NCBI GenBank assembly: GCA_026026165.1
Contig: JAPEUD010000023.1
Coordinates: forward strand, 248,001-297,859
DNA length: 49,859 nucleotides
DNA from: Sarea resinae
Taxonomy: Eukaryota
Reading direction: 5' to 3'
Shown piece by piece: positions 3,001 through 21,071 of the stretch. The notes below the pieces were generated by a model that worked only from the letters and a program-made list of their open reading frames with translations, did no database searches and was not told the origin of the DNA. Both the position numbers and the translations under genes were made by a program. Numbering within the stretch: position 1 is the first letter of the stretch; each line of letters opens with the position of its first letter.

Positions 3001-3810
3001 ATAGCATATAGCACCTTTACTACATTATTACTTTTATCTGTAATAGCTTCTAGTTAGAACGCTATCTTATAGGATTAGATAAATTTATTATGCTCTTTAA
3101 TTGTCTTACTTGTAAATAGCTCTAGAGCTTAGATTTTAGTCTAGTTAGTGATATAGAGTGCTAGTATAGCGGCTACAAGGCCTTGTCCTAGCTGTAATGC
3201 TTATATAAGTGCTTATAGTTGCTGTTCTATATAGAACTAGGCTATCTCTCTCTAGAGTTAACAATATTAAGCCTGCTACTCTTTAGCGTTATGCTCTTAC
3301 TGTATTTAGTCTAGCAATTAATTAGTGATCTAGTTAGAGACAGGCTCTTTAACCTTGCCTTCTACCTAGCTTACTACTGTCTTACTATTGTCTCTATTAG
3401 CTCCTTTACCTAGCAGAGTATTAGGAGCCCTTATAGTATTACATGTATTTATTATTGCTATCTTACCTAGTCTACTACTGTGTTAGTAGAGCGTTTAGAA
3501 TTATTAGACTACCTCCTAGACTTCTAGCTATAGTAGAGTAGGTAGGAATAGCACAATTAAATAGGCTAGTGCACTATAGCGTGCTAGCGTTACTCTAGCA
3601 ATATAGAACTAATACTATAGATATAGATATTGCTAGTAGGCACTAACTTTATAATTGCACTAAACACTAGCCCTAATAGCTAGCGCCTCTATTAATCTAT
3701 ATAACTAATAACCTTGCTTAGCTTACCTAAACGTTGCTAAACTACACTAGGTAGTTACTCTGCGCTACGCTAAGCTGTATACAGCACCTCTATTAGTAGT
3801 AGCTCTTATA
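1..3810 (-). mobile_element. Ty3/Gypsy LTR retrotransposon A, RIP-inactivated, 3' part runs off the left edge
   Basis: Minus-strand translation gives: gag CCHC knuckle ~2310-2355 (C-L-N-[Y<C]-x4-[Y<H]-x4-[Y<C]), protease ALIDL(S)R(G)AE ~2125-2150, RT VMPFR(G)LANT(A)PA ~1215-1245 and VIYLDN(D) ~1140, RNase H VETDAS-FA ~670-695 and W-HPVAYWSRK-like ~580-610. Domain order gag-PR-RT-RH is the Gypsy order. The right end (tataagagc < TGTAAGAGC on the minus strand) abuts the Copia YKA motif at 3811. Confidence 0.9.
3481..3810 (-). repeat. Probable 5' LTR of element A (inner boundary uncertain)
   Basis: Begins tgttag at 3481, just upstream of the probable gag start (~3462), and ends ...ctcttata (<ttaca) at 3810. 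The partner LTR is outside the window, so this cannot be confirmed. Confidence 0.45.
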
Positions 3811-4732
3811 GCTTTATAGCAAAGAATTTCGCCTTCTTCGCTTAATTTCTTACGATATACCTACTTCCCTTAGAGAACGTGTTGTTTAGAGGCCTTAGGC
3901 ACTAGGATCTATATCTTATTCTTCTTTAATAACTCTAGTTTATCCTTTATAGCAGCTCTCTATTAATTACAGTCAAGGCTAGCTATAGCAGCAAAGTATA
4001 AGTTAAGATCCTTTATAGGATTAATATTTGCGTCAATATAAAGAATTCAGGCTATATAGACACAGCCTACAACAATATACTAGTTTAACTCTAGTAATAG
4101 TTGTTATTAAAAAAGAGAAGAGTCTTAGGCTACAAAGGCCTTTATATAGTAGCCTTTAGAGAGCTCTATAGAGTCTCTTACTGCTTTAGAGTTATAGAGT
4201 AAACTTATAGTTAGTTTCTCTAAGGTGTCTCTAGAGTGCTTAGGATCCCTTACTAAATTTATATAAAAGATCTTAGTGTTTAGCAAGGATACTAGAGAAT
4301 TATCTCTAGCTTCTACTAAATAGAGGTTATTTAACTAATTAATAAACGCGTTAAATATAGTTTGTTAAAGGCTAGAGAAGTGACTTTCAAAGGCTATAGT
4401 AATTGTATAGGCTAAAGAAGTCGCTTCTCTTACTTCTCTTACTAAATTTGTGTTCTAACTATTAATTTCTAATAAATCTTTGTTAAATTTAACGTTGTAT
4501 ACAGTAATAATCTTCTGATTTATAGAGTCTTATATACAGTATATATTTAATGCCTTATATCCTATAAAGGTTATCTTATAGCTCTTAGAGGCTATCTTGC
4601 TTTTGTTTTTAGCATGTTTATCTAGAACATAAGCATTATAGCTAAAAACGTAAAGATAACTAAGATTAGGCTTTTCGTTATAGAGTGCCTTATATAGGGT
4701 CTTTTTTATGACTAAATTAAGCACTTAATTTA
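3811..4732 (-). mobile_element. Ty1/Copia element, middle fragment (post-integrase SH3-like region, linker, start of RT), RIP-inactivated
   Basis: ORF 4530-4724 de-RIPs to KTPYEALY-EKP-LSHL-VFGC-AYV...TFVGY, a Copia post-integrase signature. 3811-4010 de-RIPs to WRAAMEDELESLKKNETW-LVP...GKWVYRKK-GE-GEILRYKA, the Copia RT N-terminus. Confidence 0.9.
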
Positions 4733-5060
4733 TGTGAGTAGCTAGGCTAACTTAGTTTGTGCATGCAAAGGATATGCGTAAGGTTTGTACAAATCTACAA
4801 ACTTATAAATAGAGTACAAACAATAATTTGTGATAGGATAGCATTAGCAACTACTCTGCTAGCTACTCTATAGGGATAGGACATATATAGTGCTCTAAAG
4901 GCTGAACAGCTAGACAAAAGAGGGCTGTTTATGCTAAACGCCTAAATAGTTAAACAAAAGAGAGCTATTTGTGCTAAACTCCTAAACTAATAAACCTCTA
5001 AGGTTTGTAGGCCTAAACGCTGCTTAGTATGCTTAGCAGAGAGTTGCCTACTTCCTAACA
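4733..5060 (-). repeat. 3' LTR of element B (328 bp)
   Basis: tgtgag...cctaaca. Direct copy of 13470-13797 with about 10 differences by manual comparison, all transitions. Confidence 0.97.
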
Positions 5061-5063
5061 TAG

Positions 5064-5076
5064 TCCTCTCTCTTTT
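5064..5076 (-). promoter_or_regulatory. Polypurine tract (plus-strand primer) of element B
   Basis: Minus strand reads aaaagagagagga immediately before the 3' LTR. Confidence 0.8.
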
Positions 5077-5316
5077 GCATAGCGTCGTCTGCAACGCTAG
5101 TGCTATTTGTAGGTTTATATATTTGTTGTTGTTGTTTTTCTGTTGTTTAGCTTTGTATCTGTTTATAGACTGTGGCTAGAGGCAAGTGCTTTATGCTTAT
5201 GTGTCTGTTATAGGTTAGGCAGTTCTAGTGTTCTTATAGTAATAATCGTTCTTTTTAGTTTGTGGTTTTAGAGGTTCTAAGCGTTTCTACTGCTTGTAGT
5301 TGTCTTTATATCTTCT

Positions 5317-5718
5317 CTTTGTTTAACTTCTTTGTTTTAGGTTAGGGCGAATTTCGCTGATCGCTGTTTGCAGTCATGCTAGTTGTTCCTTTGTTTGTTA
5401 TTTCTTTATTGTGTTCCTTTGTTCTTAACACTAGTAGGCCTTAGTTAGTGCGCCTCTTATAGTTGTCTCTAATCTTTATTGCTTAGCATACTTTGTTTTA
5501 GCTGTTAGTAATTTAGCCTGTCGCTGTTTGTCGCTCTTTTTAGTTGTTTTTATTGTACATTTGTCTTTGTTATTATTTCTTTGTTTTAGAATCAGTGGGT
5601 CTAGGCGTTATGCCACCTAGGATCGCTCTTAGTTTTTCCTTTGTTTAACTTCTTTGTTCTAGTTCAGAGCGAATTTCGCTGATTGCTGTTTGTAGTCGCC
5701 TTATTGTTTCCTTTGTTT
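5317..5718. repeat. Pair of ~80-bp imperfect direct repeats (5317-5396, 5639-5718) in the 3' region of element B
   Basis: Shared core ctttgtttaacttctttgtt..ag...gcgaatttcgctgat.gctgtttg.agtc; spacing 322 bp. Confidence 0.85.
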
Positions 5719-6421
5719 AGGCTTTTTAGTATCCTTTGTTTTATGACATAGGAGACAGTGTTAAGTAGGTTGCAACCTTTTGTTAGCGTTTTCTATTTTC
5801 GTGGTTCTGTTTTGTAATTAGGCTTATATGTCTATAGATTTTAGCTATTTATGTTGTGCTTGTTTGCTAATTATGTCTTTATGTTTTACTTGTGTAGATT
5901 TCTTTGTGATATGCGCCTGTTAGTTGTTGTAGTGATTGTTTTGTGCTTGTTTATAAGGTTTAGCTGCAGTGTGCCTTGCGACCTTATGTTAGCTGTCTTA
6001 GTGTTTGTGCTGATTCTTTGTGCTCTGTAACTAGTTGTAATCGTGCAATTTGTGTTTTTATTAGGTGTTAGTAGAGGTAAATGTCTAGTTAGCTTAGTAG
6101 ATAAATTAGTAGGGCTTTGCAAACAGTCTTCTTACCTTGTTAACAAACCTTTAGCTATAATTTAGAGGTTGTTTTAGTTGTTTTGTTATTACATTGTCTC
6201 TTTGTTTTTATCCTTTATACGTTGCACTATGTTTAGCTAGCTAGTAAGTGCATTATTCGCTATCTCTCTTATGTTTAATACAATAATTCCTGTAGTGCTA
6301 TCGCGATTAGCTTGTTTAGTTGTCTTGTTATAGGTTATTTGTGTTGTTTGTAGTGATAACTAGAGTAGTTTGTTTAGTGTTTATAGTCTTTACCTATTAT
6401 ATGTTGTTTTTGCTTATTGTT

Positions 6422-8060
6422 ATGCTAATATTATCTGTTGCTATAGTAGCTAATGTTTGTTGTTAGTGTAAACTAGCTTCTTAGAGTGAGACAGTCGCTG
6501 CTGCACCTCTACTACCTGCTACTACTCTAACCTAATCTAGGAAAGGCTGTAGAGGTTAGGCCTCTAGCAGCTCTCTTACAACTTATTGTTTAAGTCGTTG
6601 TACTTGTTTAGCTTATGTGTTAGTCGTGCCTGTTTATATCGCTAATTAGTTAAATAAGTATAAGATATAGGCTTAGGCTATTTAGGATGCTAGTAACTAT
6701 AAGGTAGCAAACCTAGAGTGTGACACCTGTTATTATTATGCAGTTGTGTGCCTTTAGGTGTAGGAGACTAATCGCTACTTGTTGTGTGTCTTCTAAGGCA
6801 AGTCTGTCGACAAATATAGGCTTAGAGAGGTCCTAGTGTGTATTCTTATTGTGTGCTTTGTAGTATTGTTCGCTAAGTGTTTGTGATTGCTTTTTAGCCT
6901 ATTGCGCCTGCTGTTATCGCGCTGCCTATCGCTCTATCTGCTGCCTCTGCTGTTGTTATACTGCCTGCTGCGCTTGCTGCTCTTCCTACACCTAGTCCTA
7001 TAGTCGCGCTCCTTGTTACGCTGAACTAGCTGATTGTCTAAACTAGTTAGAAGTCTAAACAGTGAGTGACTAGTTCGTTAGATGTTTTGTTGTTGCTTAG
7101 GCTTATTTGTAGTTATGTTTGTGCTAGTTGCTATAGCGATATAGATTTAGACTCTTTACCTCCTAGTCTATTGCTTTGCTGTTTAGCCTGTTATGTTTGT
7201 TGCTCTCCTTGTTTTAATTCGCCTAGTGCGCAGCTACAGGCTGAGTTGTTCCTAGGCAGTGTAGATTGTAAGTTCTCCTTCTCTTTTCTGTTATTATAGC
7301 TAGGATCTGTTTGTTCGCTTGTTTTGTTTCTAAGTTAGCCTGTTTAGGCATCTCTTGTTTTCTCTGTGTGTTTTTCTTACTTTCCTTTTTTATATAGCTT
7401 TGTTAATTGTTATAAGTAGTAGGCGTAGTGCGCTAGTGCCCTTGCTAGACCCTTTTAGTCTGAATTGTGTTGACTTAGATCTAAACAATCTACTTATTAG
7501 TTAGAGCTTTGCTAATAGGCTATTAGCTATTGTAGTTAGGTTGTCTTCTTTATTGTTATCGCTGCTGCGTTCGCCTGCTAGCGATTCGCCTTAGTTGCCT
7601 CTGCCTGATTCTCCTAGGGTTTTCACAGCTTTGCTGCTGTAGTTAAGTCTTACTAGTTCGCCTCTGCTCTTTTTATAAGATCTGTCCTTTTTGTCTCTTA
7701 TGCTATCTAACCCCTTGTCTTGCGCCCTTTCTCTACGTGGTTTAGTCGCGCCTGTCGCTAATCCTATTGCTAGCGCGAATTACTATACAGGTTACAACGA
7801 CTTACAGCTGTTTGCTAAAATCAGGCTTTTAAGAGATAAGATTAGAGGCCTTTATAAGCAGATTGTTTAGGATTAGTTAGCTGCCTAAGTTAAGTTAGAG
7901 ATTGTTTAGAGCGCTGTTAATGCAGTGCAAGACAACGTTTATAATCTTATTAAGTTTGCGCGAGATATGCACACTAACCTTGCGTTTGTTAAGCACTAGG
8001 CTAGGGTTTGTTAGATTGATTGTAATGTAAAGTCAATTCCTTGTTAGTATGCGCGCTAGT
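6422..8060 (+). pseudogene. RIP-degraded antisense accessory gene inside element B: Zn(II)2Cys6-like cluster, Pro/Ser/Arg-rich region, C-terminal coiled coil; predicted exons 6422-6835, 6898-7267, 7398-~8060
   Basis: ATG at 6422. The frame stays protein-like when TAA/TAG are read as RIP'd Q/R/W. C-x2-C-x6-C-x8-[tac]-x2-C-x9-[tat] at 6719-6817. GT..AG introns 6836-6897 and 7268-7397 (GTAAGT donor) join three segments with correct phase. ORF-track entry 7066-7299 is a remnant of exon 2. Heptad-like LFA(E)IRLLRD(E)IRGL-(E)QIV-D-LAA-V(E)LEIV at ~7800-7920. Confidence 0.62.
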
Positions 8061-8069
8061 AGTTGCTTC

Positions 8070-11000
8070 TTTATGTAGTTCGTTTCTGTTTTCCTTTTTT
8101 TATGTAGGTAGTTAGGCTTAACTAGGTTTTTTTGTTTGTCCTAGGTTTGTAGATTTTAATGCTTTTGTAGGGTGTTTATAGTGAAATTCGCAGAGTAGTC
8201 CTTTAAGGTGGTTCACGCTTCTAGCCTCCTCCTATATGCTTTCCTATTTAGAGTAATTAAGCTATTTTACTTAGTATTCTAAGATGTTTTTTAGATGCAG
8301 CTATCTAGTATAGCTTTAACGTCGAATAGTTTGTTAGGGTTAGCAGCGTCTTCTTTATCCTACTGCTGTTTATCTGTATAATCTTAGTTTAGTCTGCTTG
8401 TGTATAGTTTAAGCAGTTGCACGTTAAAGACATTATAGATTTAGAACTGTTTAGGTAACTGTAGTTTATAAGCCTGTTTGCTGATTTTCTTAGTGATAAT
8501 GTATAGTCCTATTCGCCTTGCTTGTAATTTTATAGCTAGTTGTTGTGTCTATATGTTTTGTGTGTCTAGCTAAACGCGTTCGCCTAGTTTGTATTTGTGT
8601 GGTTTGCAACCTTTGTTGTATTGTTTAGCGTACTGTTTGTTAACCTTTTTTATCCTTTGTTTTAGGTGTTTATGTATGTTATTTATTTTAGCGGCATAGG
8701 CTGTCCCTATTGCTAATTTGTGTAGGTGGTTTTGCATTTAGAATTCTATTCGCAGGTGTCTCTTGTTTGTTGCTACAAAGAGAGTCATTTTAGTCGCTAA
8801 ATGTTCGGAATTATTATATATGAATTTAGCGAGCAAGAGCAATTAGGCCTAATTATCCTGTGCCCTATTTACAAACGCTTAAAGGTATGCTTCTAATGTT
8901 TGATTCTGTCGTTTAGTTTGTCTATCTGTTTGCAGGTAGAACGCTGTGCTAAGGTCTCGCTAAACTCGCAGGTAAAAGCAGAAGGAAGTCTAGAATTAAG
9001 AGGTAAACAGCGATCTGTAGTCTAAGACTATTAAATCTAGGATGCTATGCATTCGAACGACTTCTTAAATAAATGTTCCTATAAGTGTTAGTGCGTTAAT
9101 TGTCTTTTTAACTAGAACATAGTGGGCTATTTTTGTTAGTTAGTTAACAACTATAAAGATTGTGTTGTATATTCCTCCTAAATATGCTGTGCTTTTAGAG
9201 ATACCTGTGATAAAATCTATTGTAATAGATCCTTAGGCACGATCTAGAATTAGTAGTGATATAAGAAGGCTGTAGCCTTTGTGTCTGTAGGTTTTGTTTT
9301 GTTGACACAAAATGCAATTTCAGCAGTAGATTTTAATGTCTTTGTATGCACCTAGCTAATTAAATGATTGCTAAAGGTATTCTGCTGTTTGTAGTAGGCT
9401 GAAATGTCTAGCGAATAGTTTGTTGTAGTGTTGTCTTATTAGCTTGATACAAAGTTTCTTGTTTAAGAGAACGTATACTGCGTTGTAGTAATTAACTAGG
9501 CTCTTATTAGATATAGACTATGCTATTCTCTCTTTTTTATGCTGCAACCTAGTACAGCTTGTTAGTTTGTTAAGAGTAGCTAATTCTCGCCGAATTGTTA
9601 AGGCTTGTTTGTCTATATCTTACAGGTCTAAGATTATCTGAATAAGTTTAGCCGCTGATTTTTCTGCATATACTGTTTCTTCCTAAAGACTATTGTCTAA
9701 GGGAAGTGACACAAGCTGTTACGCTACAGCAGTGTCAGCACTTGTCTTATTTCAAAACGATTTAGAGCTTTCCTCTAGGTTTGTCTTAGGTATCTCTTCT
9801 TAGCCTACTGCTGTTGCAGTTTTTCAGCTTAGGGCATTATATATCTGCTTATCGCTTATAGCATGCAGTTCTCTTTAGGTTTTATAACCCTGACTATTTT
9901 GTTTGTTTGTCTTCTTCTAGCCCTAAGTAAGTGCCTCTATAAGCTATTGTCTTAGTCTTTCTTTGCTCCTAAGTTGCTCCTTAAGCTTCTAAAGAGGCTA
10001 ATTCGCTATTCTACTTGTCTTGTCTTTGCAGTTCGCTTCTTGTTTGTAGTCTAGTTAGCGCGAGGGCCTATTAGCAGGGTTCTTTAATCCTAGTCAGTAT
10101 TTAACTATAAAGTCGTATGCAGATAGCTTTTCCACCTATTTTATTTGTTGTCTTATTAGTTCCTTTGTTTTTATAAAGTGCAATAGGTTTGTGTGATTAG
10201 AGAGTGCAGTAATTCAGTGGTTCGCCTCTTCTAAGTAGTGTCGCTAGTGTTAGAACGAATTTACAATTGCTAACAGTTCTTAATCATACGTGCTATAGCG
10301 TCGTTCTACTAGTTCTATTTTTCAGCTCTAGTAGGCGATTAGGTGCTAATGTCTGTGTTTGTCTTGTTAACAAAGTATGCCTAATAATGCGAATCCTAAG
10401 GCGTCTGTTTTGACTCTAATTAGTAGCTTTAGGTCAAAGTGTCTTATAACTAGTGCGTTTGCAAACGCGTCTTTTAACTTCTAGAATGCTGTTTGCGCTT
10501 TAGGTAAGAGCTATTTCTGTTCGCGTCCTATTAGTTCAGCGCTTAGTTTTTAGTTCTGTTGTTGTTTCCTGTTTGTAGATCCTTTTAGGTATTCTAATAG
10601 TAGGATCACAATGCAGGAATATCCTTTAATAAATTGTTAGTAGAAATTAGCGAAGCCTAGGAAAACTTGCAGGTCTTTGATTTTTGTAGGTTTAGGCTAT
10701 TCTATAATAGTTTAGACTCTATTATCTTCTATAGATACGCCTTTAGTAGAGACTACAAAGCCTAAGAAGTCTAGTTTAGTTTAGTTGAATAGGTATTTTA
10801 AGATCTTTGCCTAGAGGTTCGCTGTTTGTAATCGTTTAAGAACTATTTAGATGTGTTTAGAGTGTTTGTCTGCGTTTTTGCTAAAGATTAGTATGTCGTT
10901 GATATATACAATACACATTGTGTCTAGACAGTCTTATAATGCATTATTAATATATGCTTAAAAGCTGGCAGGCGCGTTTGTTAACCTAAATAGAACTACT

Positions 11001-12040
11001 AGGTATTTAAATAGGCTGAATCTTATGCAAAAGGCAGTCTTCTATTCGTCTCCTTTACAAATTTAGAGGGTATTATACACGTCTTTAATATCTAATTTCA
11101 ACATTATTTGTGCGCCTACTAGTCTATCTAGTGCTTTAGTGATTAGCAGAAGTAGGTAATAGTCTTTGATTGTTATAGCGTTTAATGCACAGTAATCTAC
11201 AACTAGTTGCAGCCCGCTATCCTTTTTCGTGACAAATCGCATTAGGGATGCTGCTAGCGAATTCGATAGCCGAATCGCCCTTGTCGCGAGTTTTTTGTCT
11301 AGGTATTTATAAAGCGTTGTTAGTTTAGTTTGCAATAGATTATAGAGAGGGCTGTATAGGGGTTTAGTTCTAGGTTCTAATTCTATAGCGTGGTTATGCT
11401 AACTGTGTTTAGGCAGGGTTTTTACAGGTTTCTTAAACACGTCATAGAAATTTTTATATTTGTTTAGGAGGGTTATGTTTTTGTTGTTTGTCTTTTGTTT
11501 GTGTATTAGTTTGACAAGCGCGCCTGCTAGCCAGCTAGTGTTTTTAATAGTTGTATAGTTAGTTCGTTTCAGCCTAGATGCTACTGCCTTCTATAAGATT
11601 TAGTTTTGTTAGTAGTCCTTGTTTAGGTTGTGTTTCCTAAGGAATAGTTTTCCTAGAACGATATCCTTAGGTGCTTTGTCTAATATAACAAATGTTTTAG
11701 TTGTTTTTAGTGGCGTTTTGTTCAAATTAAAGGCGACTAACTAGATGTAGAGTAGCTCTTATGTTTGAATCGTCTGACTATTAAATGTTATAGGGCTATA
11801 GACCTTAGTTTTGTCTAGGACTCTAAACTGTTCTGCGAGTCTTATTTGTATAACGTTAAATTAGCAGCCTCTGTTAATAAGTGCTTGAGCTAAGGATTGT
11901 AGTTTAGTTACGTTCGTGAATTTTACGTGTATAATCTAGAGTAGACTTAGGGCGAGTTCTTCGAACTAGTTGTCTTCTATGCTGTATAACGCCTCTTTTA
12001 TAGTAGCACTTAGTGCTGCAAGAGTAAGGGCTAAGTTAGT
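8070..12040 (-). pseudogene. pol of element B (protease, RT, RNase H, integrase, chromodomain)
   Basis: PR ALIN(D)-GC ~11860-11890. RT ORF remnant 11063-11335 (FVTKKDSGLQLVVDY..LNAITIKD) and CIVYIN(D)DI ~10895-10915. RH VK(E)TDAL(S)GFA ~10390-10415. IN zinc finger/core ~8800-9440 and GL(P)Y ~8505. Chromodomain FDVK(E)AILDS...LEY-VKWL-Y-...ES-WE ~8230-8330. Ends are approximate. Confidence 0.9.
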
Positions 12041-13344
12041 TTGTTTCTTAAATCCTGCTTTCTTAGAATTGTGTTAGCGCCTAACAACAGTTTAGCTAAG
12101 CATTCTGCCGCTTAGTGTTAGTTAGAGCCGCAGTGATAGCATAGTCTAAGGTTTTGTCTGTGTTTGTGTTCTTTGTGTAATAGTCTTAGCAGTCTTTACA
12201 GTAGTGTAGCGCTGATTGTCTCTTAGGGTAGAGGGTATTTAACCTAATAGTAGGTTGTTAATAGTGTTTCCTTTGTGTAATTGCAGCTAGGATATTAGCG
12301 GTCTTCTGTTTGTGGTTTTGTCTTAACTAATTCGTTCCTTATAAGCTAGCCTGCTAATTCGTTGACTAAATGATTTGATCCTAGTAGTAGAGTATTTAGA
12401 CGCCTTTTGCAGCTAGCGTTAATGCCTATCTAGAATCTTATCTGTAATTGTTCAGGTGATATTGTCTAGTTAAGAGCAGGAAGCAGCTTGCGCAGGTGTG
12501 CTAGATATTCCTTTAGGCTCTAGTTTAAGAGTTGTGTCGCCTTTATGTATTAGTCTAATGCTTGCTGTGCTATGCTTGCAGCGTCTTCTAATCCTACTGC
12601 TATAGTGTTTGCAAATTCAGTCTATGTTGCCTGCAGGTTTATAGTCCTATAGCGATTCTATTCTTCCTATAGAGGACCTTTTAAGAACTGTTAGGCGTAT
12701 AGTATTTGTTTTGTGTCGTTCTTAAACTCTGTTTTCTTAAGTTTAAATACTGTTTCGCACTGTGCTAGAAACCTTGTCAATGCTGCCCTTAAATCTCTGC
12801 TATAGTTAGTAGGGTTTTAGTATAGTGTAGAATGTTTTAGGGGTCTAGGATTAGATATTTCCTGTTTGTGTAAGGCGGTTCGTTAGTGTCAGCCTAACAA
12901 AGGTTTAAACGTGGCGACGTTAGAGGCTAGTTTAGTGTTTGCAGCTTCTAGCGTGCTAAATGTCGTTGATCTTAGTGTTTCGCCCTAGACTTGTTTCTTA
13001 AGTTTGTTAACCTCTTTCCTTAACTCTTAGAGTTTGTATTGTTTTTACAATTCTTCTAACTCAGCCCTTGTTTATTCTAATTCGCTTGTGTAGGTTTGTA
13101 CTTTATCTAAGTCTATCTGTTGTCTCCTAAGCGAATCCCTTTCCTAAGCGATTATAGCTTAGGCGGTTTTAGGTCGTCTTTTAGGCTGTTTATATAGTAG
13201 AAATACTGCACCTGTATGCCTAGAGACTAAACTCTTAATGAGCTCGAATTCGTCCTAGTAGTTGTTAACTAGTTTAGACTGTCCTTATGCATTTTGTGCT
13301 AGTAGGTTCTGCTTTAATGCTTCGCCCCTTCTAGGTCGCAACAT
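12030..13344 (-). pseudogene. gag of element B
   Basis: Candidate ATG at 13344 (MLRPRRG). CCHC knuckle C-Y-H-C-G-S-N-*-H-*-A-A-E-C at ~12100-12142. Ends are approximate. Confidence 0.75.
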
Positions 13345-13456
13345 TTAGAGTAGTAATTTAAGGAGGTTGCTTTTATCTACTTTGTCTTTGCTAAATATTT
13401 GTTGTTTGTTTGTTCTAGTTATAATGCCTCGCGCAGACTCTTGCCCTAGTGTAGGT

Positions 13457-13469
13457 GCAGTTGCTAATA
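13457..13469 (-). promoter_or_regulatory. Primer-binding site of element B, self-priming (Tf1/sushi) type
   Basis: Directly inside the 5' LTR. 13457-13469 (gcagttgctaata) is the reverse complement, 11/13 with two transition mismatches, of 13579-13591 (cattagcaactac) within the LTR. Confidence 0.7.
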
Positions 13470-13797
13470 TATAAGTGGCTAGGCTAACTTAGTTTGTGCA
13501 TGCAAAGGATATGCGCGAGGTTTGTACAAATCTACAAACTTATAAATAGAGTACAAACAATGATTTGTGATAGGATAGCATTAGCAACTACTCTGCTAGC
13601 TACTCTATAGAGATAGGACACATATAGTGCTCTAAAGGCTGAACAGCTAGACAAAAGAGGGCTGTTTGTGCTAAACGCCTAAATAGTTAAACAAAAGAGA
13701 GCTGTTTGTGCTAAACTCCTAAACTAATAAACCTCTAAGGTTTGTAGGCCTAAACGCTGCTTAGTATGCTTAGCAGAGAGTTGCCTACTTCCTAACA
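13470..13797 (-). repeat. 5' LTR of element B (328 bp)
   Basis: tataag(<tgtgag)...cctaaca; direct repeat of 4733-5060. Confidence 0.97.
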
Positions 13798-17574: not shown

Positions 17575-19447
17575 ATTACTCTAAAGATCTTACACTTACT
17601 AGGATAGCACTAGTCCTACTATTACATCCTATAAGCCTATTAAGACTGTAGTCACTTTTATTAACCTAGCCTTCTCTCTTATCCTATACTATTTAAATAA
17701 AGAGCATATCTAATAACAAAGCTATAGTAGTAAGAGAGAGGCTAAAATATAATGCCTCTCTATACCTCTTTATAGAGTTAGCTAACCTTTTATTAATCTT
17801 AGACTCTATAGTGCTAGCAAATCTAATACCTAGACTATTACTATAAAGATTTAGCGTGCTAATAAGAGAGGTAGCAACGCTTTACTATAATCTTTAGACG
17901 CTGTTACTAGCAATAATCTGCGCAACTATATAGATAAAGTCTAGGTAGAAAGCTATAATAATAGTGGCTAGAAAGACCTGCGCCTAATACGTTTGCTGCT
18001 CTAGTATAGTTGCAATTAGAAGGTTTAAGATAAGGATACTTAAGGCGCTAATAGTAAGGATCTACTATGCAGCAAATCTAGGGATTAGCTATATAGCTAA
18101 GATAGCTCTAATAATGCTAAAAATAACAAATAGAGCCTAGCTAAAGGCGAATTATAGGATAGTCTAATACTAGATCTCTTGTTGCTATACTACTATATAC
18201 TAGAGCATAGTACTATTAGATATAAAGCTAAGTAAAGAGACAATTATTAGTAGTAAGAATAATAAGGCTCTCTATATATCTAGAGGTATAATAGGTATCT
18301 TAGCGAATTTAGCTTCCTAAAGACAGAAAATTCTAATAGATAAGATAGAGACTATAAGGAGCATAATTTTATATAGAGTAGACTATCTAACTGCAAGCGC
18401 TTAGCTATACAAGTTAGTTAGAGCAGTAAGTTAATTGTATTAGAATATATACTTCTAAATAAAGTTAAAGAGAATTAATCTATAAGTCTCTAATACAGCA
18501 CCTATATAGTTAATTAAACTATAACAGTTAATAGGTACCTCTAGCAGTAGGAGAAACTATAATAGTATAAAGACACATGCGCTAATTATTGCCCTATAAT
18601 CTTAATCTTAAGCAGGACTTAGTTGTATAAGCTAAGAATAATCTAACTTATAGTAAGAAGAAGTTCTATTTCTAGGGAGTATATTGAGTCAGAACCCTAG
18701 CAGCTATACTGCCTAGAAAGCCTCCTATAGGCGCTAAGGCAGCGAAGAAGCTTAAGCTAAGGTTTCAGTACTTTCCTAGTAGGAAGGTAATTCTAATGAT
18801 TGCTACAGCATTCGGCATAATCATTGCACCACCGATACCTGAGAAAGCCCGTGCTATGTTGAACAAGATGAAATTGTCGCAAAATCCATTGATTATCGAC
18901 CACAGAACGAACCAAGCCCCTCCTGCGAGTAGTACGTTTTTGTGACCGTACACCGCTCCAAGCCGGCCGCTGGCCAAGACGAATGTGCCTTGAGTCAAAC
19001 TATGGTGTAGCCTCGTCAGCCATGGACCCCTGCTCTCTTTTGGCCGTTGACTTACGGGTAGGATGCCGCGACCCAACTCGCCCTTCCAGGCCCATCTTCG
19101 CCTAATATCTTGCCAAATTCAAGCCCACCGGCGATACCAACAACATTGGAAATCATCTACACACCACCATGAGATATGATGGAAATTTGAAGCACAGACA
19201 AACTGCTTACCTGAACCAAATTACTGGCCACGATAACAATTGCAATTGCTATTTGACGAGATCTTCCTAGTGATGTCAATTGAATTGCCTCGAAAACCCG
19301 TCCTGGACCATTTCGACCAGTCGGACTCTCGACGCCGGTAATGGTGTCGCTTGGGCCTGTTGAGTTTATAACGCGGTCGACGCATTGAGATGATGGAGGC
19401 TGTACAACGCTTGACAATTCATATTGGACTGTTTGGGTCAAAGACAT
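17575..19447 (-). pseudogene. MFS drug:H+ antiporter (DHA2, ATR1/aminotriazole-resistance-like); 5' part intact, 3' two-thirds destroyed by RIP-like mutation
   Basis: Clean exons 19447-19211, 19156-19056 and from 18999 (SWVAASYPLTQGTFVLASGRLGAVYGHK...ARAFSGIGGAMIMPNA). First stop at 18765. Downstream de-RIPs to TFPPGK-RNLSLGFFAASAPIGG, QQTYWAQVFPA, QQGVAASLIGTL-LYG-SLG-GFAGT and GYR-ALYF. The 3' end is approximate. Confidence 0.88.
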
Positions 19448-21071
19448 GATGAGGACCAGTCTCGTGATGTCAAGACTATAAGTAGACGAGTCTAAACTGA
19501 AGGCAGAGACAACTTTCAACAAGCAGATCTTCAAATACGCCTTGCTTAGATATTTATGAAAGCCGACGGCAACTGAACGGCTGAAAGACGTTTGCTCCTG
19601 AACCCTCGACTTCTCAAACAGAACACTTGACTTTTAAAAACAGAGATGTGGGGTTGCTCCATTGAGACTCCACATTGTTTCGAGGATCTGCTGCGGGGAG
19701 ATTAGACTGTTGGGGTTCGTCGAATTCGCCCTTCATTGGTGCATCTCTTATCTTATCCTCGTATTTCCCATCGCCCGAGCAAGATGCTAGTGATCTGTTT
19801 CCACCTTGAGTCATCGTCAGAATTTAGTGATTTTCTCACATCACGAAAGCTCGATTTGCAGATCAAACTCAACAGCCACTGTAGCATCCAGTGACTAGGT
19901 ATGTCTGTCAGGGTGAGAATAGCCTCTGAGGGATCGAGTGAGATGTCTTCGATTCTTGAATGCTACTTCACACCGCCAGCTTGCCGAGTGATGACGCTTA
20001 ATCGATGACCTTGGGTATCATATTAATCATGCCTGTTCGAACTCCATCAAAATGGAGCAATGCGCTGTGAGAATCCCGTGCTAGTATGTGATGCCTTTAG
20101 CACTCTTTTCGCTCCTCAACGAGAACATGGTGCATGCTTGGCCGGCCGTTGGATCCTTTGAAGGACGGAGCTATATCTGCGTCGGCGACGTACTCGATTA
20201 TTGAGACATCGTGTTGATAGCGATAACTTCGGCCGCGACGTCATGTCCCTCGCCTCTCATGTACTCCGGTACTCGTAGCTCATGCAGTGGAGTGAAGGAG
20301 ATACATCCAGTCCTGAGATAGGGAAGTCCTGGGTCGATCCGAGGGAGCCCGGACCCCGGTGGAAGAGCAGCACGTGCGGAGACGAGATATAGGAGTCGAG
20401 CAGAAGCAGAAGACGAAGACATTGTGAAAAAGGTTCAGGGTCGTGTGTATGATGACGGAACACTGACTGGTAGAATCGTGGAGTCATTCAACTGTTGCTC
20501 CCTCCCTCCCTCTGTTATTTTATTGAAAATAATATCAAGAGACAAATAATATGGATAGAATAAAGGTCTTGCAATCCGACTCTCACCCTGCACACTAGTT
20601 TTCAGGCCATGGAAAACGGCATTATATGTATGTTCCCAAAAGACGTGAGGCACCAATCTGATCTCCCCTCGACGCAGAAAGAGTAGTAACCACCATCCAC
20701 CACGAAGAAAAAGAAAAGAAGAAAAGAAAGAAAAGAAGAAGAACAAAAGCACCCCCTCCTTCCCCCCTCCCTCACTCTACTCCCGAATCGCTAGAATACC
20801 CATGCAAAGAACGCTCGCTCATTAAAGATGCTTCATGTTCATGCTCATGCTCGTGCTCATGCTCCCCGTAACCAATCTTATGCCTCTCGTATGCTATCGA
20901 GCCAGAACGGTCCCAGCCCGTGCCCACCGGATACACACACAGCTCCATCCGAAAGAGGAACACCTCCGCTAGATTCAGCAAAAGAAAAAAAAACCCAGCA
21001 ATGACATGCATATGTTATACAAGACATGAAACGAAAGTAGCACGAGAAAGGGGGGGGAAAGAAGTAAAGGA

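Follow-up and report, generated by a model that had tools for sequence, protein, structure and literature searches.

Does the DNA between pol and the 3' long terminal repeat (LTR) of a degraded fungal retrotransposon hold the wreck of an additional gene that once ran opposite to gag-pol? The question is raised by positions 6422-8060 of a 49,859-nt stretch of Sarea resinae DNA (contig JAPEUD010000023.1; the whole stretch is referred to below as the window). These positions lie within a multi-copy Ty3/gypsy chromovirus of about 9 kb, which is bounded by a pair of LTRs, occupies the minus strand and is saturated with repeat-induced point mutation (RIP). The original prediction placed there a hidden plus-strand gene with two introns, a zinc cluster and a C-terminal coiled coil. 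The studied stretch is dead DNA today. Results of our analysis indicate that the remnant of an accessory gene antisense to gag-pol is the best single reading of it, although we hold this reading tentatively and with somewhat less than even confidence; the strand and frames of such a remnant are most likely the plus strand and the three frames described below.

Reading frames and three-base periodicity

The proposed gene divides the plus strand as follows (frames are given as the coordinate modulo 3):

6422-6835, plus strand: proposed exon 1, frame 2, with T-rich third positions over 6440-6740 (reading frame, periodicity)
6836-6897, plus strand: proposed intron 1, 62 nt, GTGTGT...TTTTAG (letters)
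6898-7267, plus strand: proposed exon 2, frame 1 (reading frame, periodicity)
6840-7010, plus strand: degenerate low-complexity run of GCT/CCT/CTG type (sequence)
7268-7397, plus strand: proposed intron 2, 130 nt, GTAAGT...ATATAG (letters)
7398-8060, plus strand: proposed exon 3, frame 2 (reading frame, periodicity)

The content of T peaks on the third codon positions of these three frames, and both the phases of the periodicity and the densities of stop codons agree with the frames as they had been proposed. The periodicity is significant in 6422-6835 (p 0.0065-0.02), in 6898-7267 (p<0.0005 for the T track, with T power up to 10.6) and in 7680-8030 (p 0.0005-0.0045 in four tracks), while 6422-7399 analysed as one block has none, as is expected if the frames of the exons differ. 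Among 300-nt windows, the median T power is 2.9 in the studied stretch, with 3 of 13 windows at 6 or more, vs. 0.9 and 1 of 43 in pol. Values of at least 8 occur in only 3 of 167 such windows of RIPped DNA, two of them within the studied stretch, and the LTR has no three-base periodicity.

The best coding-like block is 7680-8030, where the proposed frame has G contents of.29/.12/.22 and T contents of.26/.35/.46 at the three codon positions; its translation reads as a helical, Gln-interrupted C-terminal end placed tail to tail with pol. Stops in the exon 3 zone number 3-5 per 100 codons over 7262-7961. The T track is flat at 6740-6830 and 7250-7400. The second of these flat zones fits intron 2 but is no proof of an intron, and the first spans the second half of the Cys pattern discussed below rather than proposed intron 1.

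An antisense gene in intact relatives

The second line of evidence comes from intact chromoviruses. When metagenome contigs were scanned with an alignment of pol, 79 related loci were obtained, 32 of which could be evaluated (a scan of viral_contigs gave 2 loci only, which were not used further). Several of the 79 have long gaps between pol and the LTR that hold antisense open reading frames (ORFs). Profile A4 of this antisense family matches 13 stretches in 11 loci, 12 of the 13 at E 1e-3 or better, and all of them are antisense and downstream of pol. The profile matches 9 of the 32 evaluable loci; with L064, added by inspection, at least 10 of the 32 carry a selected antisense gene at the place that concerns us here, a precedent that favours the remnant reading. 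The loci of the family are:

L019, 4625-5766, minus strand: antisense family locus
L022, 3650-4723, minus strand: antisense family locus
L026, 5589-6773, minus strand: antisense family locus
L037, 7784-9096, minus strand: antisense family locus
L040, 3819-4753, minus strand: antisense family locus
L043, 5661-6044, minus strand: antisense family locus
L045, 6158-6799, minus strand: antisense family locus
L048, 5737-6159, minus strand: antisense family locus
L051, 4744-5718, minus strand: antisense family locus
L052, 3766-4740, minus strand: antisense family locus
L058, 7212-8032, minus strand: antisense family locus
L064, 8962-10018, minus strand: antisense family locus

The antisense gene of these relatives is under purifying selection. 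The ratio of nonsynonymous to synonymous substitution rates (dN/dS) of the antisense frame is 0.15-0.37 in 4 of 6 pairs, and that of shifted frames is mostly 0.9-1.2, with three shifted-frame values at 0.45-1.34. For L051 and L064, a short pair of 21 codons gives 0.65, and the exon-A pair gives no ratio owing to saturation of dS (pN 0.226 vs. pS 0.808).

The proteins of the family begin with a charged coil at the N-terminus, which is followed by a six-Cys cluster (C-x2-C-x6(8)-C-x8-11-C-x2-C-x6(7)-C); after this come a basic stretch and a long helix, and the tail is acidic. The introns of their genes are 50-70 nt long and have GTAAGT or GTGAGT as donors; in L064 and L019, an intron splits the cluster after the third Cys, and in L022 and L026 it lies directly before the first Cys, with CTAAC- or CTGAC-like branch sites. 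Hence, genes of the proposed kind, antisense and spliced, with a cluster of Zn2Cys6 type followed by a helix, do exist in intact relatives at the same position and on the same strand relative to pol.

In the one relative that matched, the Pfam Zn_clus score is below threshold (16.3 bits vs. a cut-off of 21), and a sequence search of the PDB with A3 found PUT3 at a non-significant E of 0.46-0.56. The AlphaFold model of a family member has a mean predicted local distance difference test score (pLDDT) of 69, with 97-98 in the long helix; all 13 matches to this model listed by Foldseek in the PDB are Zn2Cys6 domains, none of them significant (E 0.58-8.4). An Atlas look-alike cluster from Basidiomycota is automatically named as a Zn(2)-C6 protein, with a score of 0.89 that serves as a lead only. 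Of the proteins of the collection, at least 450 match the family at E<=1e-3, and the best 120 of these 450 are all metagenomic, with no name and no Pfam domain; a search for longer forms of the family found none. Pieces of antisense ORFs resembling the Cys cluster were also seen upstream of gag-pol on the minus strand of L007 (~730) and L060 (~1012); a neighbouring or permuted copy may be their source.

The element that carries the stretch

The features of the element, in the order of its transcription, are:

13468-13797, minus strand: 5' LTR (direct repeat with 4731-5060)
12400-13458, minus strand: gag with a CCHC knuckle, in a frame different from that of pol (translation; a codon-model control picks the gag frame)
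8033-12400, minus strand: pol with reverse transcriptase, RNase H, integrase, SH3_Tf2-1 and, by alignment, the chromodomain region, in a single frame with ~6% stops (Pfam)
5062-8035, no strand assigned: internal region from the pol end to the polypurine tract, ~3 kb, found in other family copies
5639-5718 and 5317-5396, no strand assigned: two 80-nt direct repeats, 84% alike and 322 nt apart (self-comparison)
5062-5077, minus strand: polypurine-tract-like run adjoining the 3' LTR, purine-rich on the minus strand (direct reading)
4731-5060, minus strand: 3' LTR of ~330 nt, with its edge certain to within a few bases (repeat with 13468-13797)

The LTR pair is a direct repeat of 330 nt with 97% identity (10 mismatches over 330 nt); within the 3' copy, at 4914-4995, a 40-nt unit is repeated twice. 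The purine run and pol set the orientation of the element, and the LTR pair, the purine run and the order of reverse transcriptase, RNase H and integrase in pol are those of a chromovirus. With stops replaced by X, pol matches RVT_1, two RNase H models, Integrase_H2C2 and SH3_Tf2-1 (E 1.4e-20 to 2.7e-07), all in one minus-strand frame, and the remaining five frames have no Pfam match. The Pfam Chromo model finds nothing in this RIPped copy, although PF00385 is present in nearly all pol homologues listed and the alignment to homologues extends ~40 aa beyond SH3_Tf2-1. There are 514 pol homologues at E<=1e-10, of which the best 120 are 31-47% identical. The pol homology stops at 8285-8300, and in the best 120 of the 514 relatives a further tail follows with a median of 77 aa, which puts the end of pol near 8060, in agreement with the original prediction; a TGA is located at 8035-8033, and the range for the end is about 8035-8140. 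From the LTRs, the minus-strand pol and the position of the polypurine tract it follows that the studied stretch is inside the ~3-kb region between pol and the tract. A codon-usage model trained on pol proved to be dominated by strand composition and was useful solely as a control for gag.

Over its first 19 kb, the window is AT-rich (GC 0.29-0.39), with a TpA/ApT ratio of 1.75-2.07 vs. 0.65 in the GC-rich remainder, a mark of RIP. The switch from this block (GC about 0.3-0.35) to gene-type DNA (GC about 0.5) is abrupt and falls at 19000-20000. No second copy of the element was found elsewhere within the window; in the left RIPped flank, the strongest periodicity of A (11.7) and T (9.1) occurs at 2201-2600, probably a coding part of another degraded element.

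RIP struck both strands of the element, and the conserved columns of pol served for its calibration. Each of the 10 conserved Trp has turned into a stop and 20 of 30 conserved Pro into Leu, and of 32 conserved Arg, 7 read as stops, 6 as Gln, 3 as Cys and 2 as Tyr; the stops of pol thus fall at conserved Trp (10 columns), Arg (7) and Gln (1). The altered Arg columns indicate that CpG was also hit over 8033-13458. The pol frame has a stop density of 6.1% (103/1686), and counted per 100 codons its stops number 5.2 vs. 9.1 in the other frames.

The spacer is not peculiar to this copy. In contigs of one sequencing run (X1), possibly of the sample behind the window's assembly, 263 pieces at >=80% likeness cover 30 of 30 bins of 5062-9500 with similar summed depth, and 126 of the 263 are less than 99% alike to the window. 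As diverged copies cover the whole spacer, the region is family-wide, which disposes of a one-off capture of a host gene. The copies differ at 962 places, nearly all by transitions (A>G 239, T>C 277, G>A 271, C>T 167), with 8 transversions (A>C 1, A>T 2, G>T 1, T>A 3, T>G 1); among the 40 of the 962 that were listed, none falls on the first base of a stop, a Tyr codon or a Cys codon. Presence in most copies, a property of antisense additional ORFs, is thus found here for the spacer DNA and not for an open frame. At 5720-6320, upstream of the ATG at 6422, the spacer contains an extra block of T periodicity (power up to 5.5, T at coordinate modulo 3 of 2), over which one plus-strand frame has 1-4 stops per 100 codons and a very hydrophobic reading.

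Stops, splicing and searches for homologues

The letters of the proposed gene are as described. There is an ATG at 6422, GT and AG bound 6836-6897 and 7268-7397, and the exons join to 1447 nt, a multiple of three plus one base, or 482 codons, in agreement with a product of ~480 codons. The joined frame contains 27 in-frame stops (21 TAG, 5 TAA and 1 TGA; density 5.6%), and all stop types can be reached by mutations observed in the Trp, Arg and Gln columns of pol. A listing of ORFs closed by TGA only was uninformative.

Several observations weigh against a gene remnant. Spliced paths through control RIPped DNA have equally few stops: the best path through 6422-8060 with up to two GT-AG introns has 21, and those through control stretches of equal length have 18-35, so that the 27 of the model are unremarkable, the spliced gene does not rise above chance, and the start codon and both introns gain no independent support from the comparison. 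Exon 1 retains 7-9 stops per 100 codons (6462-6861). The frames had been chosen earlier for their openness, and a frame with T at its third positions is open by construction; stops and periodicity are therefore not independent evidence. Part of the periodicity, that of 6840-7010, comes from the trinucleotide-like run and is possible without coding. Over 6422-8060, purines make up only 42% of the plus strand, an uncommon share in coding strands and one that RIP cannot alter.

The searches with the spacer point the same way. With phmmer, its reading had 0 matches among 1.84 billion protein representatives; Pfam matched none of its six frames (apart from pol); and tblastx of 5062-8100 against the 79 related loci gave low-complexity matches only (best E 0.009). 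Thus, the search for homologues revealed antisense genes downstream of chromovirus pol but no sequence match of these to the window. Plain hmmsearch with the profile of the relatives' antisense family did not match the spacer, and in a RIP-aware log-odds alignment to A4, the spacer reached 13.9-19.9 bits, controls 12-22 and family members subjected to simulated RIP 21-218. A close member would accordingly be detected, and a very distant one might escape. An earlier form of this alignment, which took the best ancestor for each codon, gave 76-106 bits in every frame and was discarded, and a purine/pyrimidine codon model trained on the relatives passed neither of its positive controls and was disregarded. 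No homology detectable in these comparisons joins the spacer to the relatives' antisense family.

Alternative explanations

The stretch may never have been a gene, but a non-coding, low-complexity, T/G-rich spacer of repeats or regulatory sequence, in which RIPped DNA allows an ORF, introns and a Cys pattern to appear. We regard this as quite possible and only slightly less probable than the antisense remnant. The numbers of stops in control stretches, the empty searches, the trinucleotide run and the low purine content are all as it would have them, and so is the abundance of Cys, which makes up 8-10% of every plus-strand frame (7.7-10.1% of residues over the three). The half-site C-x2-C-x6-C occurs six times in 5062-8060 vs. 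1.16 expected under a first-order model; for a relaxed form of the six-site pattern, the same model gives P about 0.025, and an estimate of ours based on the six observed half-sites gives about 0.25, and the Cys pattern is not above chance. Two observations speak against a spacer that was never coding: the strong periodicity of 6440-6740 and 7680-8030 does not derive from simple repeats and is absent from the LTR, and relatives with long spacers usually carry a gene there.

The coding remnant may instead belong to the minus, or sense, strand, either as a further ORF following pol or as a basic extension there, rich in Arg, Ser and Lys; in either case the plus-strand frames would be its shadow. 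This is unlikely, despite the purine- and A-rich composition that the minus strand shares with pol, the strand symmetry of RNY-type (purine-any-pyrimidine) periodicity, and a minus frame (coordinate modulo 3 of 0) with 2-5 stops per 100 codons over 6762-7161 and 7362-7761. A sense-strand ORF downstream of pol is also shared by three relatives, L069 (10195-11034), L072 (about 3400-3940) and L073 (10403-11327), all on the plus strand of their contigs; it reaches 307 aa in L073, yet these loci are GC-rich and both strands are open there, so that the ORF may not be a real gene. In the window, no minus frame is open over 6362-6861 (6-15 stops per 100 codons, the value of 6 being reached in one window only), and minus frames with A-rich third positions have 9-15 in the first and third blocks. 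Over 7662-8061, the minus frames with coordinate modulo 3 of 0 and 2 have 9-13 and 12, and the pol frame (modulo 3 of 1) has 5-8; in the latter, G is flat by codon position over 7680-8030 (.18/.20/.17), and pol homologues finish about 77 aa after 8290. We also considered that pol continues in its own frame to ~7400 and rejected this, as the T peak moves from a coordinate modulo 3 of 2 in pol to 1 in 7680-8030 and the homologues stop earlier.

There is a slim chance that this ascomycete-style family once encoded a divergent member of the relatives' antisense, spliced regulators with Zn2Cys6 cluster and coiled coil. The coding strand of the relatives has 13-19% T per codon position, and a plus strand that is rich in pyrimidines, a property which transitions cannot change, is unable to encode their basic and acidic segments.

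The original prediction in full, a spliced antisense gene with a six-Cys, Zn(II)2Cys6-like cluster in which two Cys became Tyr by RIP, has a very slim chance. It concerns one feature:

6719-6817, plus strand, frame 2: C-x2-C-x6-C-x8-Y-x2-C-x9-Y, four Cys and two Tyr (second half within the flat-periodicity zone 6740-6830; no Zn_clus match)

The pattern is present in the letters (C-D-T-C-x6-C-x8-Y-x2-C-x9-Y, with Tyr codons TAC at 6776-6778 and TAT at 6815-6817), one of five conserved Cys of pol did become Tyr, and the relatives have spliced antisense genes with a six-Cys cluster at this place, the model of which matches only Zn2Cys6 domains. The consensus of the Zn(II)2Cys6 cluster is C-x2-C-x6-C-x5-12-C-x2-C-x6-8-C. 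The window pattern departs from it with four Cys, two Tyr and a last spacer of 9 (6-7 in the relatives' clusters), it has no basic residues between its Cys, and its flanks cannot encode segments rich in Lys, Arg or Glu. Of the conserved pol columns that now read Tyr, 1 of 30 was once Cys, and of those that now read Cys, 3 of 9 were once Arg. Zn_clus (PF00172) matched neither the whole frames with X at stops (E<=0.1) nor a 55-aa piece (E<=10), neither phmmer nor the relatives' profile found a match, and the RIP-aware score is within the range of controls. These results do not connect the segment with a zinc cluster.

The proposed gene and its meaning

On the reading that we prefer, the stretch would be what is left of an accessory gene that the element once carried, most probably on the strand opposite to gag-pol. 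The product may have been a protein rich in Ser, Thr, Ala, Pro and Arg, the helical C-terminal end of which (7680-8060) would meet pol tail to tail. By analogy with the intact relatives and with the brtn gene described below, it might have been a nuclear regulator expressed from its own promoter on the 3' LTR side. We propose that retrotransposition would leave the introns of such a gene in place, since they run antisense to the genomic RNA.

The case calls for caution in calling genes in RIP-saturated DNA, where Cys-rich motifs, RIP-derivable stops and GT-AG introns come free; the evidence of weight here is three-base periodicity and the comparison with intact relatives. That comparison indicates that many fungal chromoviruses carry a selected, intron-containing antisense gene, with the layout of a minimal activator of the Gal4 type. 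If the relatives' proteins bind the LTR of their element, they would be transposon-encoded transactivators or regulators of copy number. Were the studied stretch a divergent member of this family, a Gal4-like transactivator would recur as an accessory module in fungal chromoviruses of different phyla, as a transcription factor borne by a retrotransposon and acting on its own LTR.

Comparison with known systems

Additional ORFs of unknown function have been mentioned for fungal chromoviruses (PMC2864245). Our literature search, the original brtn paper aside, found no paper linking Zn2Cys6 or binuclear clusters with antisense genes of LTR retrotransposons or additional ORFs of Gypsy elements.

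The antisense gene of the relatives' family represented by A3 and A4 occupies the space from pol to the 3' LTR, finishes close to the pol stop and is interrupted by short GT-AG introns, and the same would hold for the gene proposed here. The agreement with A4 concerns position, and the strand of the proposed gene follows from periodicity and stops only. The relatives' genes differ in being intact and purine-rich and in encoding charged segments, namely the N-terminal coil, the basic stretch and the acidic tail, and their Atlas look-alikes are from Basidiomycota. The relatives' proteins share the six-Cys spacing, the linker and the long helix with Gal4, Put3, Ppr1, Hap1, Leu3, AlcR and Pho7, although their fold matches to such proteins are weak; the pattern in the window departs from this spacing and has no match at all.

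In plants, antisense additional ORFs located between pol and the 3' LTR, of unknown function, are described for Grande1, RIRE2, Retand and PvRetro13 (PMC7264820). By that description, they resemble the proposed gene in position, orientation and presence in most copies, and differ in belonging to plant elements, several of which are of non-chromovirus lineages.

A close described counterpart is brtn, a gene that Boty-like Ty3/gypsy elements of Botrytis cinerea and Sclerotinia carry in antisense orientation in addition to gag-pol (Zhao et al. 2011, Virology 417:248; cited in PMC8365987, PMC7264820, PMC4227169 and PMC5987419). As these papers describe it, brtn is already in print as an antisense extra gene of fungal gypsy elements. 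The likeness consists in the host, a fungal gypsy element with a chromodomain, and in an additional gene, here a proposed one, that is placed after pol and before the 3' LTR and runs opposite to gag-pol; the difference is that in the element studied here, the frame was destroyed by RIP and can only be inferred.

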